This document shows, in pieces, positions 4,831 to 63,737 of a DNA stretch of 64,000 bases (the first letter of the stretch is position 1; each line of letters begins with the position of its first letter). This stretch comes from a virus. The notes below the pieces were generated by a model that saw only the letters and a program-made list of their open reading frames with translations, was not told where the DNA came from and did no database searches. Location: IMG/VR virus record IMGVR_UViG_3300048599_000281. The stretch is one strand, 5' to 3'. The translations under genes and the position numbers were made by a program.

Positions 4831-4845
4831 CGTCAGGACTGACTG
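4831..4845. repeat. AGTCA-N4-TGACT family palindrome, copy 1
   Basis: CGTCAGGACTGACTG in the 34-nt gap between two late genes. Confidence 0.85.
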
Positions 4846-4846
4846 G

Positions 4847-5284
4847 TTACTGAGCGCGGAAGAAGCCTGCGGCGTTGACCTGGAGGGTCACGTCGGAGCC
4901 GTCGGTCACGACCGGGAAGTCATGACAGGTGAGCGGAACGCGGCCGGAGTCTGCGGCCGATTCCTGGTAATAGACGACGGCGTCGGTCAGCGTATTGTTC
5001 GCCGCGCCGCCGAGCGCGTTCCAGGTCTGGTCCGGCAGATCCACATCGACGCGATCGTTGGTGTCATCCACTGTGATCGTGCCGGTGAGACCGGTCTTGC
5101 GGGCATAGTTGGTTGCGTCCGCTTCGGTGCCGCCGTTCGCCAAAATTTCAGCGAGAGTGTCGCGGTCCTTGAAGGTGGAATCGGCTTCGGCCGCCTTGAG
5201 CAGCATGATGCCGAGAGCAGAAGCGCCGTCGCGGACCTTCTCGGCCACGGCGCCTTTGGCGATATTGAAAACAAAGTCAGCCAT
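4847..5284 (-). CDS. Hypothetical virion-module protein
   Basis: 145-aa ORF with coding-like composition, in the late operon. Confidence 0.65.
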   Translation of the reverse strand: MADFVFNIAKGAVAEKVRDGASALGIMLLKAAEADSTFKDRDTLAEILANGGTEADATNYARKTGLTGTITVDDTNDRVDVDLPDQTWNALGGAANNTLTDAVVYYQESAADSGRVPLTCHDFPVVTDGSDVTLQVNAAGFFRAQ

Positions 5285-5296
5285 ATCAGGCTCCTG

Positions 5297-7096
5297 TTAG
5301 CTAGTGACCAAGTTGCGGACCACATGCAGTGACACCGTCACCTTTGTGATTACAGCGTTCGTGCTGTTGACGTAGAACCGCAACACATCGCCCTGGCTGA
5401 GAGACTTGCTCCAGCCGGTCAGGGTGCTGTCTCGCGATTTGATGGCGCCGCTCAGCGTCGGCACGGCCGACGCGACAATGGTGTCCGGGGAGCTGGGCGG
5501 GAAGCTGGCGTAGCTGATGCGCTGAATATCGACAGCCATCGAGCCGACGACATCAGCAAGCATGGTGACGCGATCGATGGTGCAGTCGAACGGCACCTCA
5601 ACGTCGACATACTGGGAAATGCCGATCGGCTGGCCGCCGCCATCGAGGATGGCCGGAATTGCCGCGTAGAGATCCTTGTTTGGCAGATTGCCGGTTCGAT
5701 AGAAAATGATGTCGAATTCGCCGTCGGCGGAGAAGGCATCGCCGGAATTGACGTGCGTGACACTCAGCTTGGAGTGGTTCGCATAATTGACGTTGTCGCC
5801 GGACAGCCTGTAGACGCCGTATTGCTTGAAATTGAAGCGGTTGCGAACCAGCAACGTGCCGCGATCGGTCGGGATATTTCCGTCATCCCAGGTGCCGATG
5901 TAGGAGAAGATGTCGTTGGTGAAATTGTCGATCTTCGCCAGCGAAATCTCGTTCACCGCGTTGAGCGTCAGCGAGTTCATCTTGAACTTGCCGGATCCGG
6001 GATTGTTCGCCGTCACCGTGTCGTTGTTGAAGACATAAGAGAAGCCGCCGAGGCCTGCGGTGCCGACCGAGGCAAGTAGCGCCCAGTGGCTATTGGTGGT
6101 CGTTGGCAGCGTCGGCGGCGCATTGCCGGCACCAGATGTACCGTTGGTATAGACCCAGGTCGAACCCTTATCGATGACGATATCGAATTCCTGGTAGACC
6201 GCGACGGCGCTGTAGTCGCCACACAGATTGAAGCCGACAACTGAGGATTCACCGGCGGAGCTCATGATGCGCCAGCGCGCGCTCGTACCGTCATAAATGA
6301 GCATCGCCGCCTGGTAGCGCCCGATCGAAACAGGGCTATTGGCAAGCTGGAATCGGTTTGCCGCGAGCGAAGACGAGCTCTCTCCGATCAGGCGGATCGG
6401 GAAATCGCCGAAATTGATCAGGATGATCATTCGGCCGGGGGCGCCGCCAGCAAGTCCGGTCAGGTCGCGGGTCGTATCAGAATTGATCCGAAGAATATTG
6501 GCCTTGGAGAAGTTCGGCGGATCGAAATTGTCCTCGTTCTGGATGATCTGCGGCGACGTGATGATGTTGCCGAACAGGATCTGGGAGAGATAGGAAACGC
6601 CGCCGGTCGAGGGGTCGACCGACAGAAGCTTGGTCCAGACGCCGGTCAGCAGATATCGGATCGCGAGCTGATCGTCGCCAAAGGCACCGATCTGAAACAG
6701 ATCGGTGCCATCGCGCTGCAGCACCATACCGGCATTGTCGTTGGCGTCGTTCTTTTCGAGCTTGACCAGGGCGTCGTCGCTCGTGACCGAAAACACCTTG
6801 CGCTGGGCCGCGGAGACCGCGGAGAGCTGCTTGGAGACCTGGCGCACCGAATCTCGGGCGGCGCTGCTCTTGAACCAGGTATAGGCCTGAGCCGAGGCAT
6901 TAGCGCCCTGATAGCCCCGATCGACAGTCACATGGGTGTCGTCGGTGATCTCGATCGCCTCATACCAGCGCCCGTCGGGCGCGAAAATCGTGTCCCCCTC
7001 AACCAGGGACGCCCACAGCGTCCCTGCCCCGACAAATGTCGGGCTGCCATTGGTCACCTGGATGGTGCCATCGGTATAGAGGGTGGTTCCATTCAT
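5297..7096 (-). CDS. Tail fibre protein
   Basis: 599 aa, directly downstream of the J-like gene. Gly/Ser/Thr/Asn-rich beta-type sequence. Confidence 0.7.
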   Translation of the reverse strand: MNGTTLYTDGTIQVTNGSPTFVGAGTLWASLVEGDTIFAPDGRWYEAIEITDDTHVTVDRGYQGANASAQAYTWFKSSAARDSVRQVSKQLSAVSAAQRKVFSVTSDDALVKLEKNDANDNAGMVLQRDGTDLFQIGAFGDDQLAIRYLLTGVWTKLLSVDPSTGGVSYLSQILFGNIITSPQIIQNEDNFDPPNFSKANILRINSDTTRDLTGLAGGAPGRMIILINFGDFPIRLIGESSSSLAANRFQLANSPVSIGRYQAAMLIYDGTSARWRIMSSAGESSVVGFNLCGDYSAVAVYQEFDIVIDKGSTWVYTNGTSGAGNAPPTLPTTTNSHWALLASVGTAGLGGFSYVFNNDTVTANNPGSGKFKMNSLTLNAVNEISLAKIDNFTNDIFSYIGTWDDGNIPTDRGTLLVRNRFNFKQYGVYRLSGDNVNYANHSKLSVTHVNSGDAFSADGEFDIIFYRTGNLPNKDLYAAIPAILDGGGQPIGISQYVDVEVPFDCTIDRVTMLADVVGSMAVDIQRISYASFPPSSPDTIVASAVPTLSGAIKSRDSTLTGWSKSLSQGDVLRFYVNSTNAVITKVTVSLHVVRNLVTS

Positions 7097-7123
7097 AACG
7101 GGGTTCTACGAGCTCCCGAAAGG

Positions 7124-7141
7124 TAAGTCAAGACTGACTGA
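7124..7141. repeat. AGTCA-N4-TGACT family palindrome, copy 2
   Basis: TAAGTCAAGACTGACTGA between the J-like gene and the fibre gene. Confidence 0.9.
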
Positions 7142-7143: not shown

Positions 7144-10100
7144 TTACAACCCGCGCGGTTCCAGGAATAGGATATTCGCCTGGTTAAATTTCCAGGTATA
7201 GGTGTAGGGAACAGACATGCCGCCAAATCCACCGTGAACGATCGTAGTGACCACGCGCACAGTGATGGTCTCTCCAACTGGCACCTGCACCATTAGGCCG
7301 CTGACGCTATAAAGCTGGCCGTTTAGAGCTGTAGGAATAGCGTTCGCCCCAGTAAGAGTAGACCTAAGTGTCGTGGTTGCGATCACAGTGCCGAGTTGAT
7401 TGAGAACCTGAAGCGAAACAGAAAAACTCTGACCACTGCCTGAAATACCGTCGTCGGTTCCCAGACCCATAACCACGCTCGCAAAGATCAATACCGAGCT
7501 TTTGTTTGATTGATAGGAAACGCTAGACACAACATCATTGGTCATACTAACCGCCGGTCCGACCGGATTGGCGCCCCAAGTGATGAGCGTCTTGTCGACC
7601 GGCGCCGGCAAAACCGATGCCTTGTTGTAGATCGCGAAATTGGAGTTGATATTGCTCGCGTTCAGATTAGTGATATAGGCCGTGTTGATATTGGCATTGA
7701 CGAAGTCGGCGACGTTCGCCGCGAGCTTGTCGGCTGTAATGACGTTCGCCGCGAGCTTGTCGGTCGTGATCGAGCCGTCGACGATCACATCGGCGTTGAT
7801 CTTCAGGGTATAGGAAACGGTGCCGTCGAGTTTTCGAATGCCCTCAAACAGGAAGCCGCCAGTCGTGTTGTCGATCGTGCCAGTTACGCCAAACTGAACC
7901 TTGACGCCGTCGTAGCTACCCTGGATCGTGTTGATCTGGGAGGTGTGGCCGTTCAGCGAGGTGGTGATGGACGAAATATTCGTAGCCAGCGCATTATCAG
8001 CGGTGACGCGAGCAGTCTGTTCGTTGGCGATCGCCGCCAGAACGCCGTCACCAATCTGCGCACTGAGAAGCTCTCGGGCGCGCGCCTCCGCGAGGTCGGC
8101 CTCAACCCGCGCATACTGTTCCTGAACGAACCGCGCCTGGACATTGTCGAGTTGCACCGACAGCATGTTGTGGATGCGCTGCAGACGGCCATCTTCGTCG
8201 TCGCGATCCTGAACCATCTGCGCCGACATGAGAGCGACAGCTTCGGCAAGATCCTCGACATCGAGCAGACTGGCGGCACCGTTGGTCTCGATGATCGACG
8301 GCAGCACCGCGGCGATCGCCTGCGACACACTCGTGACGGTAACGGAAATCTCCGAGCTGACGTTTAGCCCTTGCTTGCCGAAACGGTCATAGACAGCGAC
8401 GCGGACATAATAGGTGCCGGCATCCAGAGTGAGCACCGCCGTGGTGTCCGGACCGTCATAATCCGGCGCGATCAGCGAGGGGTTGAACCCGCCGGTCGAC
8501 TTGCACCAGATCATGACCCCGGCGAAGTCGTTATCCGTCGGCGGCGTGTAGCTGATTTCGAGGGTGTTGACGCCAGGCTTGATCGAGGGCGTCACCAGAG
8601 CCGGCACGGGATTATCAACCGAGATCGTCGCCGGATCGCTTTCGATGCCGGTTACCCCCTTCACGGTCACGTCGAAACGCAGCGCGCGGCGCGGGCCGCC
8701 GTCATTGACGTTCTTCTCGAAGTCGTAGGTATAGCTCGGCTGCCGCACGATTTCGGTGCGCAGCAGGTGATCAGCGGCGTCATAGACGCGCACCACGTTC
8801 TCGGGCTGATAGACGACAGCGTCGGTCGGAAACACGTTCTCCCAGACGAGCGTCGGTGCGGTGCCTTCAAAGGTCGTGCCGCCGCCCTGCAATTCGAGCA
8901 TGTCGACGACCGGAACCTCGATCGCTTCCCAGCCCTGCACCGTGAAGCCGTATTCGAGCGGCGGCGAAACATTGCCAGCCCGGTTCACAGACTGGATATA
9001 GAAGGTCCACTCGCCGGCGACGGGGTCGACGATATCGATGCTGGGCGTATTCGTCGGCGCAAAGGTCACGAAGCCACGGGGAGAGTCCGCGGTGACCTTG
9101 AAGTCGAGTGCCAGGAAATCGTTGACCGAGGTCCAGGACAGAGACACGCGCGAATGGGTGACGCCGTTCTGAAAATATCGGCTCTCGACGGCATGCGGGT
9201 TCGTCGGCGGCCTGATGATGTTGCTCGGGCGCGTATAGGTCGGCGCATCCAGAATAAGCCCCTGCTCTACCCGAGCGTATTTCGTCGGGTCATGAAACAG
9301 CGCAGTGACCGAGAAGATCTGCTTATCCTCACGCACCGAAAGCACGCGGTAGAGCTTGCCCTGAAGATCGACACCCTGGATGGCAAACTGAGTGCCGCGC
9401 TTTGGCAGGCTTGGAAGTGCGGTCGCAAGATTGACGATGGTATTGCCGCTCGCGAAGCTGTTGATGGTGCGTTTTTCCAGCGAGCCGTCTTCCATCACCA
9501 CGGTGACGTTATAGGTCACGCCGATCGTCGGCGCGAAAGGCGCATCGAGCTTGAGCTGTGTCAGCGAATTGACCGCAACCAGGCGCCCGCCGGCGCGCAC
9601 GCCGCCGGCCTTGTGCGGATCATTGACCAGGATGATCTGACCCGGACGCAGAGCCTGACCGTCTTCCAGGACGTGTCCGTCGAAGGACATATCGAAGGTG
9701 ACGGTTTCAGTTTCGTGTTCTTCAGCATCAAGGATCCAGCGGCCGAAACGGTTCGCCTGGCCGCGACTGGTGCAGCCGTGATGCTGCGCCTCAATCGAAT
9801 TCCAGCCATACCGGGCGAGCTGGTTCTGGTTCTGCACCACCTCCACTGCTGGTGCATAAAAGTCGGCCGGATCGTTCCAGGACACCATCGCAACCGAATG
9901 GCGGGCTTTCAGCGCGGTCTTGGAATAGTGAAAACGTCCATTGACCACGTTGGAAGGAGAGATCACCGTTGCGGGATCCTCCGGAATGTCGGCGGTCGCA
10001 AAGACTTGGCCGAGCGACCAATAGGCCATGCCGCGGAATGCCGTCGTGATGTTCTGCAGGACGCGATAGGCGTCCTCCCGCGTGATGATCTGGGTATTGA

Positions 10101-13349: not shown

Positions 13350-13359
13350 GGCCAGACAG

Positions 13360-13377
13360 TAAGTCAGGACTGACTGA
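13360..13377. repeat. AGTCA-N4-TGACT family palindrome, copy 3
   Basis: TAAGTCAGGACTGACTGA. It fills most of the 31-nt gap before the L-like ATG, which has no Shine-Dalgarno. Confidence 0.9.
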
Positions 13378-13380
13378 TTA

Positions 13381-13728
13381 TCAAGGCCAAAGCGAGAAGT
13401 CCTCGATGAAGGTCGCCGTGAAGCTGTCCGGATTCTGGCGCTTGCGGCTCCAGTCCTTGCACTTCCATTGCCGGACCGTGTCGTTGGAGAGCGCGTAGAG
13501 GAACGGGATATAGCCACCCTTCCCTTCCATGAACGTCTCCAGTGCCGCGGCCTGAACGATGGTGAGCGCCTCCCAGGTCAGACTGACCTCGCGCTTCAGG
13601 AAATTGATGCCGTCTGGCATTTCCTGGGTATAGCCGTCACCGAAATCGACCGACAGCAGCTTGAGCCGCGGTTTGGTCGAGGTGCCGGGCGACGGATCAT
13701 AAGGTGGCGCGAATGTGTCGAGAGCCAT
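13381..13728 (-). CDS. Minor tail protein (lambda gpM-like)
   Basis: 115 aa, immediately downstream of the tape measure gene. Confidence 0.8.
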   Translation of the reverse strand: MALDTFAPPYDPSPGTSTKPRLKLLSVDFGDGYTQEMPDGINFLKREVSLTWEALTIVQAAALETFMEGKGGYIPFLYALSNDTVRQWKCKDWSRKRQNPDSFTATFIEDFSLWP

Positions 13729-19020: not shown

Positions 19021-19055
19021 AAACGAAAACTGGCGATCCGGGGTCCCGGATCGCC
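19021..19055 (-). terminator. Rho-independent terminator after the major tail gene
   Basis: Minus-strand GGCGATCCGGGACCCCGGATCGCC followed by AGTTTTCGTTT. Confidence 0.8.
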
Positions 19056-19070
19056 AGTCAGTATTGACTG
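19055..19070. repeat. AGTCA-N4-TGACT family palindrome, copy 4
   Basis: CAGTCAGTATTGACTG, directly abutting the terminator hairpin. Confidence 0.9.
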
Positions 19071-19092: not shown

Positions 19093-19956
19093 TTAGCCGA
19101 TGATGTTCTCGTCACCGACGATCGCCAGGATGCGGGTGTCCGAATCCGGATAGCCGGAGAATTCGACGTTGAAGATCCGCTCCTCGTCGAGCTTGTAGGC
19201 GAAGCTCAACTGGCCCGGAGTCATCGCCTTCGGGATCGTGAAGTCTTCCGACTTGTCGGCCGCCGGCAGGCTCTGCGGATGGAACACGAGCTTCTTGGCG
19301 AACGACAGAAGCGACAGGCCGACGCCGTTCTTCAGGTTCACCTTCTTGCGGGTGTCATCGACACCGCTCGCCATATCGACGATGGTGCAGTTGGCGCCGG
19401 TGACGAAGGTCTTGGTCATGGTCACTGCATTGCCCCACACACCGTTCTCGTCGGCGGTGATGGTCACAGCGGCACCCGAAGCCGAAGCCGTGATGCGCGA
19501 GATCAGCGGATCGGTCGACCCATTGAGCTTGTCGCGCAGCGCGGTCGCGGCGGCACTGATCGACGCCGGAATACCCATTTCGTTGGTATTCGGGGCCGGC
19601 GTGGTCTTGAAGGTGAAATCGATGCCGTTGACCGTGACCTTGTCGCCGTTCACGGGCGCCGCGGTCGAGAACGTGATCGTGCCGGTGGCCTTGGCGCCAC
19701 CCTCACCCACGAGCTGCGCGCCCGGCATGATGCGCACCAGGTTCTCCAGCGTGGTTTCCGCGAGCGGAACCTTGGCGCGGCAGGTGCGACCCATGATGAT
19801 TTCGTCGACCTCGGACTCGCCGAACTGATCGACCATGACTTTCTTGGTGGAGGTGACAACCTCGACCTCGACGCCGCCCTTGGTGTAACCCAGGTCGACG
19901 CCATCGAAGGTGACCGAGCACACGCCGAGCTTCACATTTCGCGTATTGGAAGGCAT
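19093..19956 (-). CDS. Major tail protein
   Basis: ATG 19956 preceded by GAGGAG (the track start at 19965 is a TTG inside the RBS). 287 aa. Lies between connector genes and the chaperone and is followed by a strong terminator. Confidence 0.78.
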   Translation of the reverse strand: MPSNTRNVKLGVCSVTFDGVDLGYTKGGVEVEVVTSTKKVMVDQFGESEVDEIIMGRTCRAKVPLAETTLENLVRIMPGAQLVGEGGAKATGTITFSTAAPVNGDKVTVNGIDFTFKTTPAPNTNEMGIPASISAAATALRDKLNGSTDPLISRITASASGAAVTITADENGVWGNAVTMTKTFVTGANCTIVDMASGVDDTRKKVNLKNGVGLSLLSFAKKLVFHPQSLPAADKSEDFTIPKAMTPGQLSFAYKLDEERIFNVEFSGYPDSDTRILAIVGDENIIG

Positions 19957-19985: not shown

Positions 19986-20002
19986 ATCAGTCAATTCTGA
20001 CT
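19986..20002. repeat. AGTCA-N4-TGACT family palindrome, copy 5
   Basis: ATCAGTCAATTCTGACT. Confidence 0.9.
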
Positions 20003-20014
20003 ATATGATACCCG
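20003..20014 (-). promoter_or_regulatory. CGGGTATCATAT box (candidate -10 of an internal late promoter)
   Basis: The identical 12-mer is upstream of the capsid gene at 25556-25567. It contains TATCAT. Confidence 0.5.
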
Positions 20015-20047: not shown

Positions 20048-20575
20048 CTATGCCTCATTCTTGGATAGGGCACCGCTCGCAGCGACCCGCACGCGCCGGA
20101 CATTGGCGGGCTGGACGTTGTAATGAGGCCGGCGCGCCGCGTAGAGCCGGCTCTTGGCGATCCGGATGATGCAGGACTTGTCGCCCTGGTTGCCGCCGGC
20201 GACGTGATAGGCGGCATTGTCCTCGGCGATATACATGCCGACATGGCCACCGCCATTGCGCTTGAAGGTCAGAATGTCCCCCAGCATGGGAACGTCGGCT
20301 TTAACCCCAAAATTGGCCCAATTCAGCGCCCAGAGCGGGTTGACCGGCAGTTCCTTGCCGGCGCGCTTGGCGATGATCGCGGCTTCCAGGCCGCACCAGG
20401 GGATCGAGTCGGCGGTATAGACCTTCTCCAGCCCGAGCTCGGCGGCCCAGGACATGATCAGCGGGCTGTTACCAGGCCCCGGCACCTCGGCCGCGCCATA
20501 GATCTTGACGAATTCGAGGACCATCTTCGGGCCGGGTTCGTTGGCGAGCCAGGCGTATTGAGCGGGCAGGTTCAT
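20048..20575 (-). CDS. CHAP/NlpC-type cell-wall peptidase (TIGR02594-like)
   Basis: 175 aa with AAGGAGAAG RBS. Cys motif DSIPWCGLEAAI and His motif GGGHVGMYIAED. Confidence 0.78.
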   Translation of the reverse strand: MNLPAQYAWLANEPGPKMVLEFVKIYGAAEVPGPGNSPLIMSWAAELGLEKVYTADSIPWCGLEAAIIAKRAGKELPVNPLWALNWANFGVKADVPMLGDILTFKRNGGGHVGMYIAEDNAAYHVAGGNQGDKSCIIRIAKSRLYAARRPHYNVQPANVRRVRVAASGALSKNEA

Positions 20576-20598
20576 GGGGCTTCTCCTTGCCCCTATTG

Positions 20599-20616
20599 TA
20601 AGTCAGTTCTGACTGA
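20599..20616. repeat. AGTCA-N4-TGACT family palindrome, copy 6
   Basis: TAAGTCAGTTCTGACTGA. Confidence 0.9.
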
Positions 20617-24530: not shown

Positions 24531-24562
24531 CTAAAGCAAAGGGCGGGGAATGCCCCGCCCTT
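24531..24562 (-). terminator. Rho-independent terminator after the major capsid gene
   Basis: Minus-strand AAGGGCGGGGCATTCCCCGCCCTT followed by TGCTTT. Confidence 0.8.
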
Positions 24563-24567
24563 CACAG

Positions 24568-24585
24568 TAAGTCAGTTCTGACTGA
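24568..24585. repeat. AGTCA-N4-TGACT family palindrome, copy 7
   Basis: TAAGTCAGTTCTGACTGA between the capsid stop and the terminator. Confidence 0.9.
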
Positions 24586-24594
24586 CGATCAAGG

Positions 24595-25497
24595 TTAAAT
24601 GTTGGTGACGCCCTTCAGGCGGGAGACCGAATGGGTCGCCTTCAGCGCCGTGCCGACGTACCACTTCACACGCCAGCGGACCGCGTCCTTGTTCTGGATC
24701 GTGCCGATCTCCTCGACCTTCAGGCCGGCAGCCTCGCCGCCGACGATGCCGTGGAAGCCGTCGGTTTCGTTGAGGCGGAGCGCGTAGATCGACGTGGTCG
24801 CCGAGTTGGAACCCATGACTTCGTCGTTGGTGATGAAGTCATTGATGATGACCGGCACGCCGTCGATCGAGGGGACCGGGCGGCCAAAATTCTCGATCAT
24901 CATCGAGACCGCATCGTTGCCGCCGGCGGCGCGCAGGATCTGCTTGATCGAGCGCCAGGTGCCGGTCCGCATCATGTAGCAGTCCGCGCCGAGCTTCACG
25001 CTGTCCTTCAGCTCGTCGATCATGTCGAGCGTGATGGCCGCGCCGTTGGCGCCTGCGATCAGGGTCTGGCCCGCAGGGACCAGCTTCTTGATGCCGTCGA
25101 ATTCCTTGGCGTTGTCCGCGGAATTGCCGTTCACCAGGGTCCGGCGGAACTTGCGACCCATTGCCTTCGCCTTCTGGGCGAGCTGAATCGCGAGCTGCGG
25201 ATTGGCGTCGGACATGGTCGACAGGATGAACTTGTCCATATCGACATCGCCCGCCATGATGCGCAGCTTGGTCTCGACCTCGCTGAAGGTCGCGGCGCCC
25301 TCGGGCACCGGGTCGTATGGATCCAGGAACTCACCTTCGGAGAGGGTGTTTTCCCGGTTATAGGAATAGGACTTGCCGTTCACGGTCTTGAACGGAAAGA
25401 GCGCGAAAAGCTCATCGCGGTCGATGACCTCCTCGATCACCCCACGTTCCATCAGGTTTTCCGAGAGCTTCTCGGCTTCGGCTTTCAGCAGGGCCAT
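24595..25497 (-). CDS. Major capsid protein
   Basis: ATG 25497 preceded by GAGGAG. 300 aa. Follows the scaffold gene and is followed by a strong terminator. Confidence 0.88.
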   Translation of the reverse strand: MALLKAEAEKLSENLMERGVIEEVIDRDELFALFPFKTVNGKSYSYNRENTLSEGEFLDPYDPVPEGAATFSEVETKLRIMAGDVDMDKFILSTMSDANPQLAIQLAQKAKAMGRKFRRTLVNGNSADNAKEFDGIKKLVPAGQTLIAGANGAAITLDMIDELKDSVKLGADCYMMRTGTWRSIKQILRAAGGNDAVSMMIENFGRPVPSIDGVPVIINDFITNDEVMGSNSATTSIYALRLNETDGFHGIVGGEAAGLKVEEIGTIQNKDAVRWRVKWYVGTALKATHSVSRLKGVTNI

Positions 25498-25533: not shown

Positions 25534-25551
25534 TAAGTCAGTTCTGACTTA
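25534..25551. repeat. AGTCA-N4-TGACT family palindrome, copy 8
   Basis: TAAGTCAGTTCTGACTTA (8-bp arms). Confidence 0.9.
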
Positions 25552-25555: not shown

Positions 25556-25567
25556 ATATGATACCCG
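25556..25567 (-). promoter_or_regulatory. CGGGTATCATAT box (candidate -10 of an internal late promoter)
   Basis: Same 12-mer as at 20003-20014. TTGTCC lies 18 nt upstream of TATCAT. Confidence 0.5.
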
Positions 25568-25590
25568 GCGTTGCGCATTGAGGACAAGAG

Positions 25591-41754: not shown

Positions 41755-41757
41755 TTC

Positions 41758-42047: not shown

Positions 42048-42051
42048 CGTG

Positions 42052-45341: not shown

Positions 45342-46220
45342 TCAGGCCGAGGTCGCCGCCATCATGCGCGCTTCCAGATGCGCCACCGCGGGGTGGTCCG
45401 TCAGCGTGAAGGTCGGGTTGCGAACCGAACCCTCGCGCTTGACGAGGCCCAGGGTCTCCAGAGCCTGCATCGTGGACGAGGCTTGCGTGGGCGCGGTCGA
45501 GGCGCTCACGGTGTGCCGATGCAGCGCCGAGCGCAGCGACACGTCCGCGACCTTGATCTTGTCCGAAGCCGCAGCCTTCGCCAGCTCGCCCGTGAAAGCG
45601 AGACCGGCCTTGCGGAACTGGAACAAGGACTTCAGACAGGCGCGGTTGATGGCGTTCTGGACCGAGCCATCGGTCAGACCGCGGACGAGATCGGCGAGCT
45701 TGCCGATCGCGTAGACGTTGTAGCGGGAACCCTCGTGATAGGTGCGATTGAGGGTCTCCGGGGTGACGGTACAGGCGATCATCACGCGAGCGGCGCGCCG
45801 CGTCACCATCGCCTCGCGAGCGGACTTGAGGGTGCGCTGGATATTGTGTCCATCGCCCTTCTTCGCCTTCTCGAACTCCACGCGCTCGTCGACCGCCTTG
45901 GCGATCTTGCCGACGACCACGTCCGCATCCGCATCGCTGATCGCGTTGATCTGCTGGCTGAACGGGGTGGAAGCCTGCGGATCTTCGACCGCGAGCACCG
46001 TCTGCGCCTCGATGTTGCTCGGCGCCGTCGGCACATGGACCGGTTCGGCTTCGAGGCTGAGGCTCTCGATCGCCGCAACGTCGTCGGCGTCGATCAGCAT
46101 CGGCGACGGGTCCATCTGGGCTTCGGTCGGGGCGGTGGTCTCGGTCATGGCGAACTCGGTCGCGGGCTTCTCGCTCGCCACCTCGACGTTCTTCGCCTTC
46201 TTGTCCTTACGCTTGCTCAT
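45342..46220 (-). CDS. Phage protein of unknown function (family with 42125..42730 and probably 57527..58219)
   Basis: 292 aa from ATG 46220 (GGAG 6 nt upstream); the track start at 46244 lies inside the conserved leader. Acidic N-terminal half and a conserved C-terminal half. Confidence 0.78.
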   Translation of the reverse strand: MSKRKDKKAKNVEVASEKPATEFAMTETTAPTEAQMDPSPMLIDADDVAAIESLSLEAEPVHVPTAPSNIEAQTVLAVEDPQASTPFSQQINAISDADADVVVGKIAKAVDERVEFEKAKKGDGHNIQRTLKSAREAMVTRRAARVMIACTVTPETLNRTYHEGSRYNVYAIGKLADLVRGLTDGSVQNAINRACLKSLFQFRKAGLAFTGELAKAAASDKIKVADVSLRSALHRHTVSASTAPTQASSTMQALETLGLVKREGSVRNPTFTLTDHPAVAHLEARMMAATSA

Positions 46221-46289
46221 TTCGATCTCCGTTGCTGTTTGCATCCGTCACGTTGTTGTGACGATTGCGACAGTCGCAGATCGCGGTGC

Positions 46290-46302
46290 GGAATGCGGTA
46301 GG
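46290..46302 (-). promoter_or_regulatory. CCWACCGCAWTCC-type upstream box (CCTACCGCATTCC)
   Basis: 45 nt upstream of the ATGCAAAC leader at 46237-46244. The hairpin CGTCAC-N6-GTGACG lies between them. Confidence 0.5.
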
Positions 46303-46399
46303 CAAATGCATAGGCGCACAGGCAGCTCGTGCGCGCTCGCGCGTTCTTTATACATGCGCACAACCGAGCTTTTAGGCAGGTGTGGGGTTGTGGCGGCGC

Positions 46400-46700
46400 G
46401 GGAGTGGAGCTGGTGTGGACTTCCTCGGTCGGGCCATGGCGAACCAAGGAGAACCAAGGAATGCCTCGGAGAGGCCATGGTCTCCCAGCCGGAGAGATCC
46501 GCCATGTTTCGTCTATTATAGGCCTAGTTATACCTAATAGACGAAAATAGGCTTTTTGGTCGAAATGGGAAAATGGGGTGTCGAGTGTTCCATGGCTCCG
46601 GCTCGGGAAAGGGGTTCGCCATGGGACAGCCTGGCGGCGGCGATCGCCAAGGTTCCTGCCGAAGCATGGCTCGCGCCGGTTCCTAGATTCCTGAACTGAT
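46400..46700. repeat. Noncoding array C: CCATGG x4, CCAAGG x3, GGTTCCT words
   Basis: Same word set as arrays A and B, interrupted by the 46507-46546 inverted repeat. Confidence 0.75.
46507..46546. repeat. Perfect 12-bp inverted repeat TTTCGTCTATTA-N16-TAATAGACGAAA
   Basis: Contains two CGTCTATTA boxes in opposite orientation. Confidence 0.9.
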
Positions 46701-46769
46701 GGGTGAAAGGGCGAGGCCGACACAAACGGGCCGGCCTCGCAAGGTGCGGACCGCAGCAAGTGCGGCCGT

Positions 46770-46830
46770 GATGCAAACGACACCGCGGAGATCGGTGAGA
46801 GCGTGTCTAAGCGCAAACCCCTAGACGCAG
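46770..46830 (+). pseudogene. Degenerate inverted copy of the leader and first codons of the 46220 gene
   Basis: GATGCAAACGACACCGCGGAGATCGGTGAGAGCGTGTCTAAGCGCAAA resembles GATGCAAACAGCAACGGAGATCGAAATGAGCAAGCGTAAG. The downstream ORF 46803..47192 has atypical third-position composition. Confidence 0.3.
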
Positions 46831-47028
46831 CGTCGCAAGCGAGAGATAGCGCGTGTCGATGTGGATCGCAATCGGCGGTCATAGGGCAGATCGTCAGGGG
46901 TGAGGATGGTGGGGCGCCAACCCGTCGTCTCACCTGTCTTCTTCCCCACGATCGTCTTTCTGTCTCCCCTATGCGTCTCCCCTGCCCTCGTCTCTCTATG
47001 GCGTCTCATGCTCTTAAGAGCCTGGTAG

Positions 47029-47037
47029 CGTCTATTA
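47029..47037 (+). promoter_or_regulatory. CGTCTATTA box, copy 4
   Basis: GCGTCTATTAGGT, in a tract with repeated CGTCTC words. Confidence 0.6.
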
Positions 47038-47125
47038 GGTGCTCTGGTGAGCATCGTCTCCGATATACGTTTTCCCTTATAGAAAGCGCAGATCCCGATC
47101 AGCTTCAGATTATAGATTTCGCGGT

Positions 47126-47138
47126 GTCGCTAAATCGC
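47126..47138 (+). promoter_or_regulatory. Isolated TCGCTA-type site GTCGCTAAATCGC
   Basis: Same half-site as the 56.6-kb array and the parA operator. Confidence 0.5.
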
Positions 47139-47233
47139 TCGGGGCTATCTTTCTGCGGGGTCTGTTTGCTTGTGCGGGGTGAGCACTCTTAAGTCTATCG
47201 GTGGTGTTTGTGCTGTCGGGAGTATGAGAATTT

Positions 47234-47496
47234 TGGTTGTCTTTTGGGTCGAAAATTATTTTGGGCGTTGGTTGTGCAACTAAGAGTCAACCAAACGACA
47301 ACCAGTCAGCACTGAATTGGTAATCGGGTATTGCCCGCAGAGCGATTTGGTTGTTATTTTGGTTGCATTGGGCCTGGAGAGAGCGGCGGGCTTGTGGGTG
47401 AAAATAGTGGCCTGGTGGGGTTGGACTACCAGGCCTGGTGGGGAGAGACCTCTGTGCGGTGGACCTGGTTGTTACTGGTTGTCTTGATGACAACCG
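47234..47496. repeat. TGGTTGT / ACAACCA word cluster
   Basis: At least 8 copies in both orientations (47234, 47269, about 47290-47303, 47348, 47359, 47466, 47476, 47490). The last ones fall inside the lipoprotein signal-peptide codons. Confidence 0.65.
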
Positions 47497-54483: not shown

Positions 54484-55716
54484 TTAGCCTTTCACATTGA
54501 CGAGGGTGCGCAGCCTGGTCTGAACCGAGATCAGATCGTCCTGGGCTGCGATGACTGCGGAAACGTCTTTGTAGGCGGCGGGACTTTCATCCAGGACCTC
54601 GCTGTCGCGGCGGCACTCGATGCCTTCGACCGCACGACAATGATCCTCCAGGGTGATCGTTTTCATCGCATCGCCGCGGCTCATGGCTCGCCCTGCCCCG
54701 TGACTGCACGAGGTGAACGAGTCGCGATTGCCCTTGCCCTTCACGATGAAGGAGCCGGTGCCCATCGAACCTGGAATGATGCCGTATTCGTCGAGCCGGG
54801 CGCGCGTCGCGCCCTTGCGGGTCACCCAGACATTCTTGTCGAAGTGATTTTCCTTCGCCGCGAAATTGTGGTGGCAATCGAAGCGCCAATGCACGGCGGC
54901 GCCGAGCACATCGATCACGGCGTCCATCATGGCGTTGCGGTTCGCTTTCGCGAAATCCTGCGCCCAGAGCATCGCCTCGATGTAGAGGCTAAAGTCCTTC
55001 TCGCCTTCCGGCAGAAAGGCGAGATTTGGATCCGGCAATTCAACGTGCCATTTCTCCATGTGCGCTTTCGCACGCCGCGTGAAGATGTTGGCAATTCGAG
55101 CGCCCGGCCCGCGCGAGCCGGAATGCAGCATCAGCCAGACGTTGTTGGCTTCGTCGGCCTGGACCTCGATGAAATGGTTGCCAGTGCCGAGCGTGCCGAT
55201 GTGACGCTCGGTATTCTTGATATCCAGCTCGGGCGTTTTGGCGAGAATGTCGCCCCATCGATACGACAACGATGCTCCAGGAACCGTGTCGCCGGCGAGC
55301 CGCCATCTGTTTTCAATTCGCTCGGGCACCTTGCCCCAGGCGCCGCGATCGTTCGGACCGCCATTGTCAGTGCGGCCGTGTGGCACCGCCTTCTCGATCA
55401 GATTGCGAGCACGGGCGACGCCGAACTCCTCCAGATCGTCGATGGTCATGTCGAGCTTCACCGACTGCATGCCACAGCCGATATCGACGCCGATCGCCGC
55501 CGGCACGATCGCGCCTTGTGTTGCGATCACGGATCCGATGGTCGAGCCCATGCCCCAGTGAACGTCGGGCATCGCAGCGACATGCTTGAAGATGAAAGGC
55601 AGCTTGGCGACGTTGAGAAGCTGTTGCCTGGCTTCGTCTTCGATATGAACGCCATTAACCCAGGCTTTGATGCCCGCGCCGCGCTCCTGGTCGAAATACT
55701 GGTAGTTCTGCGCCAT
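54484..55716 (-). CDS. rtcB: RNA-splicing ligase RtcB (3'-phosphate/5'-hydroxyl RNA ligase)
   Basis: 410 aa. MPDVHWGMG, GVDIGCGM, GTGNHFIE, HSGSRGPG and SCSHGAGR motifs. Confidence 0.95.
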   Translation of the reverse strand: MAQNYQYFDQERGAGIKAWVNGVHIEDEARQQLLNVAKLPFIFKHVAAMPDVHWGMGSTIGSVIATQGAIVPAAIGVDIGCGMQSVKLDMTIDDLEEFGVARARNLIEKAVPHGRTDNGGPNDRGAWGKVPERIENRWRLAGDTVPGASLSYRWGDILAKTPELDIKNTERHIGTLGTGNHFIEVQADEANNVWLMLHSGSRGPGARIANIFTRRAKAHMEKWHVELPDPNLAFLPEGEKDFSLYIEAMLWAQDFAKANRNAMMDAVIDVLGAAVHWRFDCHHNFAAKENHFDKNVWVTRKGATRARLDEYGIIPGSMGTGSFIVKGKGNRDSFTSCSHGAGRAMSRGDAMKTITLEDHCRAVEGIECRRDSEVLDESPAAYKDVSAVIAAQDDLISVQTRLRTLVNVKG

Positions 55717-55726: not shown

Positions 55727-55743
55727 TAAGTCAGTGTTGACTG
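55727..55743. repeat. AGTCA-N4-TGACT family palindrome, copy 15
   Basis: TAAGTCAGTGTTGACTG between the -10-like box and the rtcB RBS. Confidence 0.9.
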
Positions 55744-55748: not shown

Positions 55749-55757
55749 GATATAGCG
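55749..55757 (-). promoter_or_regulatory. -10-like box CGCTATATC (rtcB promoter candidate)
   Basis: 5 nt upstream of palindrome copy 15. Confidence 0.6.
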
Positions 55758-57380: not shown

Positions 57381-57396
57381 ATCAGTTAACACTGAT
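57381..57396. repeat. Variant palindrome ATCAGT-TAAC-ACTGAT, copy 16
   Basis: 16 nt upstream of ATG 57364. Confidence 0.75.
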
Positions 57397-57526: not shown

Positions 57527-58219
57527 TCAGGCAGCGGCGATCCCGCGCAGCGCAGCAGCGACCTGGGAGTTCGGATTGCGCTCCAGGGTCTGCTTCGTGC
57601 GGGTCGCGATCTTGACCGTGTCGAACAGGTTCATGATCTGCCCCGCCTGCGAGCGCGCCGTGCCCTCGCTGTAGGAGGCTCCGGACCGCTTCGACGCGGC
57701 GCGCAGCGCAGCGACGAGATCGGCCTGGGTCACGGTGCCGGCCTTTTCGAGCGCCTCGAAGCAGACCATCGCGTAGACCGACGGTTTCTTGCCGGCGGCG
57801 ATGCTCTGGAACAGGTTCTCGAACTTCTCGGCGATCTTCTTCTGCTTGGGCAGAAGCGCGATCACCGCGGCCTTGTTGGCTTCCGGATCGACGGTCGAGC
57901 CGATGGTCAGCTCGAAATGCTTGGCGTCGATCGCGTTCAGATCGCGCGGCGTGCGCGGCGCGCCAGCCTTGCGGGTCTTCTCGGCAGCCGGGGCTTCCGG
58001 GGTCGCTTCGGGCTCGATGCCGCTGGCCGAGACCGGTGCGGCTTCGTAGTGCTCCGATTTCGCCTCGACCAGCTCGACCGCGGCCTCGTCGGCCGGATCC
58101 AGCTCGACGATCGCCGGATCGCTGGTGAAGCTCTCCAGGTCGAGTTCGGCGAGCTGAGCATCCACCGCGGCGATCTCCGCAGCAGACGGCGTCTCGGTAT
58201 TCACAGTGCGCTTGTCCAT
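57527..58219 (-). CDS. Phage protein, probable third member of the 42125/45342 family
   Basis: 230 aa from ATG 58219 (AAGGAG RBS). Acidic N-terminal half. C-terminal SEGTARSQAGQIMNLFDTVKIATR..RNPNS resembles STAPTQASSTMQALETLGLVKR..RNPT. Confidence 0.68.
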   Translation of the reverse strand: MDKRTVNTETPSAAEIAAVDAQLAELDLESFTSDPAIVELDPADEAAVELVEAKSEHYEAAPVSASGIEPEATPEAPAAEKTRKAGAPRTPRDLNAIDAKHFELTIGSTVDPEANKAAVIALLPKQKKIAEKFENLFQSIAAGKKPSVYAMVCFEALEKAGTVTQADLVAALRAASKRSGASYSEGTARSQAGQIMNLFDTVKIATRTKQTLERNPNSQVAAALRGIAAA

Positions 58220-60975: not shown

Positions 60976-61206
60976 TTATGACGCCTTCCGGTCTTCGATC
61001 CGAATGCCGCTTTTCCAGTCGGCAGGGCGCTTTGCGGTCTTGGAGCGCTCGACGAGCACCTTCTTCTTGCCGACGGAGCGCCAGCCCTTGGTCGAGTGAA
61101 GCGCCAAGCCGGTGATTTCGCTTCTGCGCATCCACACCCAAGCGACCGGGTTGAAGACCACGACGCTCAGGATCCGGAGCCGATTGGTGACGATTTTGCC
61201 TGCCAT
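60976..61206 (-). CDS. Hypothetical small protein
   Basis: 76 aa with GC-rich third positions. Confidence 0.55.
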   Translation of the reverse strand: MAGKIVTNRLRILSVVVFNPVAWVWMRRSEITGLALHSTKGWRSVGKKKVLVERSKTAKRPADWKSGIRIEDRKAS

Positions 61207-61216: not shown

Positions 61217-61231
61217 CGTCAGAACTGACTG
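61217..61231. repeat. AGTCA-N4-TGACT family palindrome, copy 17
   Basis: CGTCAGAACTGACTG. Confidence 0.85.
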
Positions 61232-62116: not shown

Positions 62117-62640
62117 GATGACGCCCGAGCAAAACTGCCAAAGTGTTTCAAAGCTGCGGCGTCGTAAGCAGCCACAGCTTCATTTTCAGTCGCAAAGCTA
62201 CCTAGAAAGATATGTTTTTGGTTTACTGTGATTTGAGCGAGATATCGGTCTTTTCGCCGGCGAACGCCTTTTTTGCCACTAGAATTATTTGTAGGTCTAT
62301 TTTTATTCGCCGCACTCTGCGATCCGGTCGCAATCCGAAGATTGCCCCATTTGTTGTTCGATGGGTTTGTATCTTCATGGTCGACAATTCTAGTCGGCCA
62401 TTTGCCGGTTACGATCGCCCAGACGATTCTATGACCTAAACAAGGAGATCCATCGATCGATATTATGAGATATCCATCAGGTCGAATTGTTCCCGCTACA
62501 TCACCCGCTTTTGCGGCTTTACAGCCGCCACGATCGATACGCCAGCGTAGTTCTCCTGTGAGAGGGTTATAGGAAAGCAACTCCTTCAATCTTTCGACCG
62601 AGGGTTCTTTTCTTACTCTCTTTCGACCAATACTGGTCAC
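62113..62640 (-). CDS. HNH endonuclease with C-terminal AP2-type DNA-binding domain
   Basis: GTG start. HRIVWAI..VDHEDTNPSNNKWGNLRIAT plus YLAQITVNQKHIFLGSFATENEAVAAYDAAA. AT-richer than its surroundings. Confidence 0.85.
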   Translation of the reverse strand: MTSIGRKRVRKEPSVERLKELLSYNPLTGELRWRIDRGGCKAAKAGDVAGTIRPDGYLIISIDGSPCLGHRIVWAIVTGKWPTRIVDHEDTNPSNNKWGNLRIATGSQSAANKNRPTNNSSGKKGVRRRKDRYLAQITVNQKHIFLGSFATENEAVAAYDAAALKHFGSFARASS

Positions 62641-62801
62641 TGCGACAAAGCCATGCCAAGCAGCATCAGAAAGCCGATCCCGGCTACTGTCATCGACGCC
62701 GTAAGATGAGCGCGCCAGGGATAGAACTGGCTGATGTCGCCGGCGAGCGGAATCGCACTTACAAAACCAAAGATGAAAAGCCCAAAGCCTAGAGCGATCA
62801 T
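62637..62801 (-). CDS. Small membrane protein
   Basis: 54 aa, MIALGFGLFIFGFVSAIPLAGD.. ATGA and GTGA overlaps. Below the track cutoff. Confidence 0.45.
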   Translation of the reverse strand: MIALGFGLFIFGFVSAIPLAGDISQFYPWRAHLTASMTVAGIGFLMLLGMALSQ

Positions 62802-63004
62802 TTCAGCCCTTCACGCGCCTGAATGAGAATATTGGTGATCTCGTAGGGCACGAGACCCTGGATCGTGTCGATCTGATAGCGAAGGATCTGGTCGAGCGTC
62901 TGCTTGGTGATCTGAGCCCGGCTGTAGGCGTCCCAGGCATGCTCCAGCGATTCAATCGCTTTGCGCGCCAGTTCGTCCGACAGCTCGGGCCAGGATCGCT
63001 CCAT
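62798..63004 (-). CDS. Hypothetical small protein
   Basis: 68 aa. Confidence 0.6.
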   Translation of the reverse strand: MERSWPELSDELARKAIESLEHAWDAYSRAQITKQTLDQILRYQIDTIQGLVPYEITNILIQAREGLK

Positions 63005-63687
63005 CAGTGAACCGTGATGCCTCGCTCGGCCGCCAATTCCCGGAAGCGCGAGAGCCAGATAGTCTTGGCGATCTCCGGGGACCAGTATTGGAAGTCGAAA
63101 TGCCGCGGCTTTTCCTTCGCGCGGTCATAGACCTTCTTGTCGTAATGAACCGCGTCCTCTTTCGAGGCGATATTCTGCGCCACCTCGGTATGACCGAGAA
63201 TCTCGTCGGCGATACGAACTTCCTTCGGCCACGGATAGACCAGGCTGAAGCGCTCGGCGATCGCCCGCGCGATTCGATCCTCGATCTTGAGATACATGGT
63301 GCCGTAACAGGGCAGGGCCTTCATCGGCCGGATCAGGTCGCCGATGATCGATTCCGGCGAATCGTGCATCAGCGCTTCCAGCGCGAATTTCCTGGGCGTC
63401 AGGTAGGAGGCGTGAATCTCGTGCTCATTGATGGTCATGCCCATGATGGACTGGCCATTGAAGCGGTAGACGCGGGACCCGCCGACTGCCAGGTCCTCGA
63501 TAAAGACCTCCTCGGGGCGTGGGTCGCAGGGGAAGAAGATGCGGCCGGAATGAGTGAAGGTGTAATGGCCGAGCCGATCCGGATAGCCTGGCGAATGAAC
63601 GCCCTCCAACAGGTCTTCGAGCGACGAATCCTTGATCGCCTGATCGATCATCTTCGGGGTCAGTTCCAGTGTGATCTTGTCCAGCAT
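63004..63687 (-). CDS. HD-domain phosphohydrolase (5'-nucleotidase-like)
   Basis: 227 aa. NEHEIHASYL and LMHDSPESIIGD motifs. Confidence 0.78.
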   Translation of the reverse strand: MLDKITLELTPKMIDQAIKDSSLEDLLEGVHSPGYPDRLGHYTFTHSGRIFFPCDPRPEEVFIEDLAVGGSRVYRFNGQSIMGMTINEHEIHASYLTPRKFALEALMHDSPESIIGDLIRPMKALPCYGTMYLKIEDRIARAIAERFSLVYPWPKEVRIADEILGHTEVAQNIASKEDAVHYDKKVYDRAKEKPRHFDFQYWSPEIAKTIWLSRFRELAAERGITVH

Positions 63688-63696
63688 GAAAGCTCC

Positions 63697-63737
63697 GCGC
63701 GCTATAAGTCAGTGTTGACTGACAATATAGCGCGCGC
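63697..63737. repeat. About 41-bp near-perfect palindrome containing palindrome copy 18 and two opposed GCTATA boxes
   Basis: GCGCGCTATAAGTCAGTGTTGACTGACAATATAGCGCGCGC. The core TAAGTCAGTGTTGACTGA is at 63705-63722. Confidence 0.9.
63724..63732 (-). promoter_or_regulatory. -10-like box CGCTATATT
   Basis: Abuts palindrome copy 18. GGAG RBS and ATG 63687 lie downstream. Confidence 0.55.

Follow-up and report, generated by a model that had tools for sequence, protein, structure and literature searches.

A repeated promoter palindrome in phage-plasmids of the SSU5 superfamily: a candidate operator for coordinated repression of lytic genes

Operators that occur in many copies and serve a single plasmid or phage regulator are known as a kind, and the closest described counterparts of the element that we analyze here—a palindrome AGTCA-N4-TGACT repeated in 64,000 nucleotides of viral DNA (IMG/VR record IMGVR_UViG_3300048599_000281; the whole stretch is called the window in the following)—are the sites of ribbon–helix–helix (RHH) proteins that act together with ParA. 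The omega protein of pSM19035 is a ParA partner and at the same time a repressor of several promoters; one dimer binds each 7-bp unit WATCACW, the smallest site of high affinity is a pair of abutting units, either direct or inverted, such sites overlap promoters, and at least four contiguous units are needed to activate ParA (PMC9499535). As in the omega sites, the palindrome of the window consists of 7-bp units, two of which abut in inverted orientation and overlap promoters, and the double role of omega is the one proposed below for the reader of the palindrome. However, omega uses arrays of 7–10 units at three promoters, which control copy number, partition, and a toxin–antitoxin system, whereas the window and its relatives have about 20–40 isolated two-unit sites per genome, mostly at promoters of phage structural and early genes. 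ParG of TP228, the RHH partner of a ParA-type ATPase, binds short boxes in direct or inverted orientation at fixed spacing, its own operator OF lies just downstream of the −10 element, ribbon positions 2, 4, and 6 contact the bases and set specificity, and RHH proteins act as repressors (PMC3413123). The position of OF recurs in one class of the window copies, but the ParG boxes are 4 bp long (ACTC), are separated by 4-bp AT-rich spacers, and form arrays of 8–12 at one locus (parH/OF), and control beyond its own operon is not known for ParG.

Phage P1 offers further comparisons. Its late promoters consist of AAGTNACTT, 4 nt, and TAnnnT, and 11 such promoters are bound by Lpa (PMC10695390). Like the window, P1 is a phage-plasmid with scattered units in which a small palindrome just upstream of TAnnnT replaces or accompanies the −35 element, and in both cases a candidate regulator gene lies just upstream of the packaging genes. 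The P1 late box also shares its outer letters AAGT...ACTT with the window palindrome, but it is 9 bp long and is followed by a 4-nt gap before the −10 element, whereas the element of the window spans 14–18 bp and abuts the −10. The C1 repressor of P1 has many scattered operators over a phage-plasmid that overlap promoters, as in our proposal, but these are asymmetric 17-mers read by a monomer. On the large plasmid RK2, the helix–turn–helix (HTH) proteins KorA and KorB have many scattered operators, which are 12–13 bp palindromes overlapping promoters, and HTH operators of the lambda/434/P22 type share with the window copies the form of a 14–18 bp dyad that overlaps the core promoter. Homologues of C1, KorA, or KorB were not seen in this analysis.

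The palindrome of the window is very probably a protein-binding DNA operator in promoter cores, and the explanation that we consider best as a whole, with a probability of roughly 0.55, is an operator read by an RHH protein that coordinates the repression of lytic transcription units. Where dinucleotide-preserving shuffles would lead one to expect 0.03 exact matches to the pattern AGTCANNNNTGACT, the window contains 13; if up to one mismatch is allowed, the number rises to 23, with about one expected. A scan with a symmetric position weight matrix, in which copies scoring above 20 were called strong and a few weak ones fell below, gave 18 strong copies, starting at 4831, 7126, 13362, 19056, 19989, 20601, 24570, 25536, 28243, 30282, 32046, 34688, 36597, 41741, 42031, 55729, 61217, and 63707; five of these carry one mismatch (4831, 32046, 36597, 41741, and 61217). 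The original prediction of about 20 copies, made from the letters of the window, was thus borne out, as was its fuller consensus T[AC]AGTCAG-NN-CTGACT[TG]A; it located the sites correctly but with several coordinates shifted by 1–3 nt because flanks had been included, and it listed four of the five one-mismatch copies but left out 32046. On a codon-usage-trained gene map with 99 genes that cover 87% of the window, 17 of the 18 strong copies lie entirely in intergenic DNA, compared with an expectation of 11.6% (binomial p = 2e-15), so that the claim that all copies lie between genes holds except for 32046, which occupies codons 13–17 of a predicted gene. Of the intergenic gaps that span 20 nt or more, 12 of 16 in the structural half (1–36.7 kb) contain a copy, compared with only 4 of 25 in the remainder. 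The spacing between the two 7-bp units is invariant in all copies. The variant ATCAGT-N4-ACTGAT, which had been reported at two places, is also real: it has two exact matches (25596–25611 and 57381–57396) and five with at most one mismatch, against 0.04 expected. As a side observation, the 18-mer has an internal 4-nt periodicity, (TCAG)2-NN-(CTGA)2 in the window, and both variant copies keep the 10-bp offset between one TCAG and one CTGA.

The evidence for a role in promoters comes from the position of the copies, which fall mainly into two classes. In the spacer class (7126, 13362, 20601, 24570, 28243, and 34688), the palindrome abuts TACTGT, TACTAT, TACAAT, TACCTT, or TAACAT, and in four cases TTGATA, TTGATC, TTGAAA, or TTGTAA lies three or four bases upstream, so that the palindrome occupies the 17–18 bp promoter spacer and its flanking TA provides the first bases of the −10 hexamer. 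Read in the direction of transcription, 6 of the 23 copies abut a TAnnnT, and in reverse none of the 23 does, with a background of 0.3%; four of the six also have TTG at −35, and the statement that late-region copies lack a promoter box was therefore wrong. About 40% of the spacer-type copies carry a good TTG −35 at 17 nt. The individual arrangements, all on the minus strand except for the last, are as follows. At 7126–7139, the palindrome lies between TTGTAA (7144–7149) and TACCTT (7120–7125) upstream of the gene at 5297–7096, and at 13362–13375 between TTGATA (13379–13384) and TACTGT (13356–13361) with a 17-nt spacer, where the ATG of the minor tail protein L gene follows 6 nt past the −10. 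The copy at 20601–20614 has a weak −35 and is followed by TACAAT (20595–20600), a Shine–Dalgarno sequence, and the ATG of the gene at 20048–20575. Directly after the stop codon of the capsid gene, the copy at 24570–24583 is flanked by TTGATC (24587–24592) and TACTGT (24564–24569), and a terminator stem (24541–24560) with a T-run begins 3 nt past the TACTGT. At the junction of terL (28268–29545) and the portal gene (26633–28213, assigned by homology to annotated portal genes of relatives), TTGAAA (28260–28265) and TACTAT (28237–28242) enclose the copy at 28243–28256 at a distance of 17 nt. The last copy, 34688–34701, is a perfect 18-mer (TAAGTCAGTTCTGACTTA) in a 65-bp divergent region between a ParB-like gene (−) and the helicase gene (34736–36334, +); it has −10-like hexamers on both sides (TAACAT at 34682–34687 on the minus strand, TACCAA at 34702–34707 on the plus strand) and therefore lies upstream of both predicted transcript starts.

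In the second class (19989, 25536, 41741, 55729, and 63707), a −10-like GCTATAT or GGGTATCAT lies 2–8 nt upstream of the palindrome, and a Shine–Dalgarno sequence and a start codon come after it, so that the palindrome covers the predicted transcript start. The copy at 19989–20002 (−) begins 2 nt past GGGTATCAT, which includes the −10-like TATCAT at 20005–20010, and lies upstream of the gene at 19093–19956, in a layout that is orthologous in the relatives B1VFA (66350) and RHph_N1_15 (N1_15 in the following). At 25536–25549 (−), the palindrome is found 8 nt past a promoter TTGTCC (25582–25587)-N18-TATCAT (25558–25563), upstream of the major capsid gene (24595–25497, −, identified by homology to annotated capsid genes of relatives). 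GCTATAT boxes precede the one-mismatch copy at 41741–41754 (−; box at 41759–41765, 4 nt away) and the copy at 55729–55742 (−; box at 55750–55756, 7 nt away), the latter being followed by the Shine–Dalgarno sequence and ATG of the RtcB gene (54484–55716, −), which lies among many small minus-strand genes. The copy at 63707–63720 is located between face-to-face GCGCTATA boxes (63701–63707, +; 63725–63731, −), upstream of an HD-domain gene (63004–63687). The boxes that had been proposed for the early region are thus present as GCTATAT 4–7 nt before 41741, 55729, and 63707, but at 42031 the letters are GCTATTA. Around copy 63707, we also noted that GCGCGCTATA and TATAGCGCGC face each other to form a 41-bp extended palindrome (63696–63736) with −10-like boxes on both strands; the rightward box would run antisense to a 47-aa HTH-like open reading frame (63758–63901, minus strand).

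A strict sigma-70 scan of 18.5–36.7 kb returned four sites only, three of which match copies: the palindrome lies within the spacer at 28243 and follows the −10 by 8 nt at 25536, and at 19056 the −10 lies inside it. Three or four of the nine intergenic GCTATAT boxes have a palindrome after them, which makes the palindrome an addition to some promoters rather than a part of the promoter itself. On the minus strand between 40643 and 63731, 8 of 12 GCTATAT boxes are intergenic, and five intergenic ones have no palindrome; in B1VFA, a GCAyTCC common to the equivalent boxes is found 12 nt upstream. The GCTATAT promoter class may be read by a sigma-70-family factor whose gene lies between cobS and dnaE in relatives (B1VFA_132; EVB78_082 in N1_15); no sigma gene was found in the window.

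The distribution of the element in relatives is a second line of evidence. At the DNA level, the window is only distantly similar to the Rhizobium phages B1VFA, V1VFA-S, RHph_X66, and RHEph10, but its large terminase subunit shares 62–67% identity with theirs and 56% with the subunit of Salmonella phage SSU5, and on this similarity the window is part of a phage-plasmid of the SSU5 superfamily. The closest IMG/VR locus is about 77% identical, and a megablast search of the window against plasmids gave trivial matches only. Related terminases are found on 955 plasmid-deposited records (PLSDB), including 116–117 kb plasmids of Methylobacterium, Pararhizobium, Shinella, and Sinorhizobium and Acinetobacter elements of about 110 kb; the hosts comprise Klebsiella, Escherichia, Acinetobacter, Yersinia, Salmonella, and soil alphaproteobacteria. 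repC, parA, and parB are present in B1VFA and V1VFA-S, whose identity to a Rhizobium plasmid is about 94% (PMC12509600), and pLM21S1 is a RepC-type plasmid prophage related to RHEph10 (PMC5537653).

Searching related phages for the same motif, as had been suggested, revealed the AGTCAG form or altered half-sites in several clades, and an unbiased count of 5-mer inverted repeats identified the clade-specific versions. B1VFA has no AGTCA-N4-TGACT but 31 exact copies of AGTAA-N4-TTACT against 0.03 expected, with the consensus TAAGTAAG-NN-CTTACTTA; SSU5 has about 19 copies of TA-RGTAAG-NN-CTTACY-TA; and in N1_15, a member of the RHEph10 clade, the version is AATCAA-NN-TTGAYT. The unit AATCAAT of this clade matches the omega unit WATCACW at 6 of 7 positions. 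A pattern scan of IMG/VR for the AGTCAG form gave 84 loci with 38–70% GC, many of them from 107–118 kb contigs that have terminase, portal, capsid, ParB-like, and helicase genes in common with the window. The 4-nt periodicity reads (TAAG)2-NN-(CTTA)2 in B1VFA and (TCAA)2-TA-(TTGA)2 in N1_15.

While the letters of the half-sites change, the positions are kept. The terL/portal spacer reads TTGCAA-palindrome-TACAAT in B1VFA, TTGACG-palindrome-TACCAT in N1_15, and TTGAAA-palindrome-TACTAT in the window, each with the palindrome of its clade. Four clades have a common layout after the capsid gene, with a stop codon, the palindrome, TAnnnT, and a strong terminator stem 3–5 nt further on (window 24533–24592, −; B1VFA 60131; N1_15, locus L094, 15256; SSU5 5472). 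This unit fits a restart promoter: the predicted start is inside the stem, and a transcript beginning there would escape termination. In the helicase/ParB divergent region, all three alphaproteobacterial clades have a palindrome with a −10-like hexamer on the helicase side, and the B1VFA orthologue of copy 36597, at 47837, comes after a GCTATAA box. Hybrids occur as well: in B1VFA, 94115 and 94718, beside an Xre-type gene, combine one AGTAA half with one TGACT half of the type found in the window, and SSU5 has AGTCAG..CTTACT at 3545 in a TTGAAA...TATGAT spacer.

Two lytic-looking phages, nickie of Pseudomonas and BUCTxx99 of Stenotrophomonas, are members of the family as judged from terminase, portal, capsid, and gene order, but no shared motif was found in these two genomes. 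The generalized pattern RRTMA-N4-TKAYY, searched in 50 kb of each, has no match in nickie and one in BUCTxx99, compared with 16–37 in the four palindrome-bearing genomes, a comparison that is uneven in that the degenerate pattern alone leads one to expect 4.5 matches by chance in SSU5. At its terL/portal junction, nickie has kept TTGCAC-N17-TACCAT with a spacer unrelated to the palindrome. Neither phage has a homologue of the ParA found in all Rhizobium members, and the nickie annotation shows no repC. Since palindrome and ParA are missing together, the element appears to track the plasmid-prophage clades, an association that comes from a small number of independent lineages. We found no description of the palindrome in the literature on B1VFA, SSU5/pHCM2, pLM21S1, or phage-plasmids, and a repeated palindrome is not mentioned in the two reports on the Rhizobium elements (PMC12509600 and PMC5537653). 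It is thus apparently a genuine, family-wide regulatory site that has gone undescribed.

The two arms of the element vary independently. Among 71 sites of the RHEph10 clade, in which AATCA, AGTCA, and AGTAA half-sites occur, 28% are self-complementary against 30% expected for independent halves, and in 28 of the 71 sites two of the five positions are non-pairing. The observed symmetric fraction and that expected under independence are 81 and 67% in the window, 89 and 78% in B1VFA, 32 and 25% in SSU5, and 73 and 64% in the IMG/VR loci.

From the sequences, we infer protein binding, the identity of the protein, and a repressive effect. The operator would be a pair of 7-bp units that abut in inverted orientation (AGTCAGN|NCTGACT, in many cases with TA or TC added), and each unit would be read separately by one protein subunit. 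In one position, it occupies the 17-bp spacer, and its last TA would serve as the first two bases of the −10, an arrangement found at structural-gene junctions and in the helicase/ParB divergent region; in the other, at early and accessory, capsid, and tail genes, it lies 2–8 nt past a −10-like box and over the predicted start. A protein bound at either position would exclude or trap RNA polymerase, and repression would therefore account for both arrangements by one mechanism. We consider repression the better guess for the effect of binding; the good −35 elements of about 40% of the spacer-type copies, the palindrome-free promoter of nickie, and the plasmid-prophage distribution are in favor of it. 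The most likely function would be the coordinated repression of many lytic transcription units in the plasmid-prophage state, although a dual switch with both activation and repression is possible.

The most likely reader would be a ParG/omega-type RHH protein beside ParA, bound as a dimer of dimers. In the window, this is a 97-aa protein encoded at 39576–39869 (+), whose gene directly follows and overlaps the end of parA (38938–39579, +), the gene of its ParA-type ATPase partner. Compared with all Protein Data Bank (PDB) sequences, its best two matches are omega of pSM19035 (1irq; 2bnw, 2bnz, and 2cax) in an alignment that spans the whole RHH domain but has an E-value of only 0.14–0.23, and a six-orthologue profile found ParG of TP228 first, with an E-value of only 0.1. 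In Pfam, the window protein matched RHH_10 and Omega_Repress and its N1_15 orthologue RHH_10 and ParG (about 1e-3), but none of these matches reached its gathering score. A hidden Markov model search for this RHH protein gave eight hits, seven of which have a ParA match within 1.5 kb (the exception is locus L017), and two hits (L014 and L059) cover the N-terminal region only. At the positions corresponding to ribbon positions 2, 4, and 6 of ParG, all four AGTCAG loci and N1_15, with a TCA core in the half-site, have D-N-K, and B1VFA, with a TAA core, has G-T-N. One dimer per 7-bp unit, as in omega, would explain the independence of the half-sites. The ParA/RHH module is missing from the palindrome-less nickie and BUCTxx99, and the palindrome at 36597, 3 nt before the first gene, stands in an autoregulation-type position at the start of the par gene run. 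We therefore name the ParA-linked RHH protein as the leading candidate, an assignment that is tentative.

Several points speak against a repressor of this type. Confidently nameable promoter boxes are missing at 7 of the 18 copies (4831, 19056, 30282, 32046, 36597, 42031, and 61217), and the strict phasing of palindrome and −10 is also compatible with an activator, as is the large number of copies that have no −35. The similarity of the RHH protein to omega and ParG is borderline. The co-variation of ribbon and half-site covers three clades only, as the SSU5 RHH protein beside ParA is unalignable, and between the window and RHEph10 clades, heptad positions 2 and 6 differ although the ribbon residues are the same. 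Arrays of 7–12 units make up the omega and ParG sites, but the window sites have only two, and a search of 36.3–42.1 kb for an array of at least four contiguous units that could be a centromere found none; all copies are two-unit sites. Finally, copy 36597 on the par operon fits autoregulation but is awkward for a simple repressor that turns lytic genes off.

The alternative that survives best, although we regard it as improbable, takes the palindrome as a late-promoter element of the Lpa type, with an activator that recruits RNA polymerase from a palindrome centered about 20 bp upstream of the start at promoters with a −10 but a poor −35, or as a dual switch in which the same protein, bound downstream of the −10, shuts early promoters. 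The activator would be a small winged-helix protein of 87 aa (30392–30655, −; phrog_900) encoded directly upstream of the terS-like gene. The center of the dyad lies 7.5 bp before TAnnnT in strict phasing in the window and 9 bp before it in P1, most SSU5 copies have no −35, and the 12 of 16 late-region gaps with a copy fit such a function as well. The gene order winged-helix protein, palindrome, terS, terL mirrors lpa, LPpac, pacA of P1, and the winged-helix gene is conserved directly upstream of terS in every clade, with profile matches to MarR, LexA, and AspA domains (E 4e-5). However, a tblastn search with P1 Lpa found no match below E = 1 in the window, B1VFA, SSU5, or the IMG/VR loci, and an activator cannot work from the copies downstream of −10 boxes at RtcB, the HD-domain gene, and other early-region genes, while it should be unneeded at the spacer-type copies with a good −35. 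Moreover, nickie and BUCTxx99 keep the winged-helix gene and the junction promoters without the palindrome, and the recognition helix of the winged-helix protein does not sort cleanly by palindrome type.

Less probable still is a prophage repressor of the CI/Xre HTH type, encoded beside repC outside the window, whose dimer on the 14-bp dyad would silence lytic promoters throughout the genome in the way of P1 C1. A 14–18 bp dyad with half-site centers about 9–10 bp apart over core promoters is the standard layout of an HTH operator. In each of the 16 repC loci retrieved from the viral collection, all with a detected homologue, the Xre-type gene and repC are about 1 kb apart and on opposite strands. 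B1VFA has palindrome copies on both sides of this gene, the recognition helix of its product changes with the lineage, more or less in parallel with the dominant half-site, and N1_15, which was isolated as a phage, has a frameshift in the gene. Yet there is no homologue in the window or in SSU5, although SSU5 has its copies in the same architecture; the match of helix to motif is noisy with few sites per locus, and the co-occurrence with ParA/RHH is explained no better than by the RHH model. The frameshift of N1_15 (locus L094, 49938–50000, and L098, 1–213) comes from a C run that is 1 nt shorter than in five intact relatives (L103–L107) and splits the HTH from the N-terminus; it is either a sequencing error or the mark of a repressor-defective, lytic-growing isolate. 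In the same neighborhood, AATCAG-NN-GTGATT beside repC (N1_15 locus L094, 49099; also L100, L101, L102, and L106) is conserved across clades that use different palindromes, and on one strand it lies inside a promoter TTGACA-N17-GATAAC that points away from repC. Counter-transcript promoters occur in repABC replicons, and this promoter may be one of them.

An RNA 5′ stem–loop that stabilizes transcripts or marks processing sites, which the original prediction preferred, is very improbable. The motif is self-complementary, the predicted start in upstream-box promoters is at or within the first bases of the palindrome, and the C-to-A and G-to-T change between clades is symmetric so that the arms stay complementary. 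However, hairpin energies average −4.2 kcal/mol in the window and −2.9 kcal/mol in B1VFA as well as in N1_15; for random 18-mers of the window, the mean is −1.8 and the 5th percentile −5.7 kcal/mol, and the two terminators beside copies reach −21.5 and −22.3 kcal/mol. Leaders that start at the palindrome fold no better than shuffles (z −1.1 to +0.9), pairs lost in imperfect copies are not compensated, copy 36597 does not fold at all, and the whole window has no Rfam match. Spacer-class copies are upstream of the predicted transcript start, and a normal −10-to-start distance places the start of upstream-box transcripts inside the left arm. Weak hairpins, independent arms, and position thus indicate that sequence rather than structure is under selection and that the halves are recognized separately, as expected of a multimeric DNA-binding protein. 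The position in promoter cores, the clade-specific half-sites, and the independence of the halves support the other option of the original prediction, in which a dimeric DNA-binding regulator acts on all units.

Although the element co-occurs with the ParA/RHH module and RHH ParB proteins bind such units (PMC9499535), dispersed centromere-like sites that serve partition alone and have no role in transcription are hardly credible, as partition does not require the fixed phasing with −35/−10 elements or the orientation bias, and the sites have two units where omega needs at least four contiguous ones to activate ParA (PMC9499535).

Other candidates were rejected. The annotated regulators of SSU5 (SSU5_054, 116, 121, and others) have no counterparts in other clades, and a presence/absence screen of B1VFA proteins against N1_15 and nickie left about 50 lineage-specific proteins, too many to pick one. 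Consensus sequences of host factors are TTAA-N7-TTAA for CtrA, GANTC for CcrM, and GTTC-N7-GTTC for alphaproteobacterial LexA; these and sigma-54 differ from the palindrome, and no host factor would explain different motifs within one host genus or the same motif at 38–70% GC.

What is new is the specific element, its distribution in the SSU5 superfamily, and the clade-specific specificities, together with a possible link between partition and phage silencing. Phage-plasmids as a class spread resistance genes (PMC9600943), and we found no published account of how SSU5-type elements silence their phage genes as plasmids. A recognizable operator at most promoters, with variants that differ between clades, would be an experimental handle and would allow transcription units and cross-immunity groups to be predicted from sequence. 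We also put forward, as a speculation that we ourselves doubt, that the RHH partner of ParA is, besides its role in partition, a genome-wide silencer of the lytic program in SSU5-superfamily phage-plasmids, acting through two-unit operators in 20–40 promoters. If true, plasmid partition and lysogeny maintenance would be run by one RHH protein, an example of partition machinery doubling as a lysogeny switch, and changes of the three ribbon residues, matched in all operators, would define mutually blind “immunity” groups (AGTCAG, AGTAAG, and AATCAA).

The remaining copies have less telling surroundings. At 19056–19069 (−), the center of the palindrome overlaps the −10 of a predicted promoter TTGACG-N18-AATACT, and a terminator stem (19028–19059) comes directly after. 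The copy at 4831–4844 (−; one mismatch) lies between a stop codon and the gene at 4462–4812 with no clear promoter boxes; that at 30282–30295 (−) is 8 nt upstream of the terS-like gene (29542–30273, −) and downstream of the small winged-helix gene; and that at 61217–61230 (−; one mismatch) is 10 nt upstream of the gene at 60976–61206. The copy at 36597–36610 (+), with the mismatch that leaves it unable to fold as RNA, precedes the gene at 36614–37216, which opens the gene run ending with parA and the RHH gene. At 42031–42044, the palindrome lies in a 470-bp non-coding region (41656–42124), 290 nt from copy 41741. The copy at 32046–32059 (−; one mismatch), in the 5′ end of the predicted gene 31546–32097, may be a chance or relic copy. 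Of the two variants, ATCAGTAAGGACTGAT at 25596–25611 lies after the gene at 25623–26564 between A5 and T6 runs in a terminator-like setting and looks more like a weak bidirectional terminator than like an operator, and ATCAGTTAACACTGAT at 57381–57396 has TTGCAA before it.

Annotation of the window by Pfam and PHROGs further includes tail genes and two ParB-N-domain proteins; tRNA and Rfam scans of the whole window (Rfam at gathering thresholds) gave no match. Paralogous proteins encoded at 42125–42730 (+) and 45342–46220 (−) both match B1VFA_058, and a phrog_5235 protein at 57527–58219 (−) is conserved in B1VFA_012 and SSU5_087; none of these has a Pfam match. A 1.27-kb stretch at 46221–47486, without a convincing open reading frame or tRNA/Rfam match, contains a weak palindrome copy (47304) and short repeats of the TTGGTTG/CAACCAA type and could be an origin, an iteron region, or an RNA gene. 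Upstream of terS, at 30296–30391, a direct repeat TCTGGGAAA[AT]T occurs twice along with an AT-rich core, and relatives have long inverted repeats (12–17 bp arms) around an AT-rich core at the same place; the core of SSU5, at the junction between the end and the start of its record (L092 and L088), contains AAGTGACTT, the sequence of the P1 late “−22 box”; this repeat region could be a packaging site or the terS promoter.

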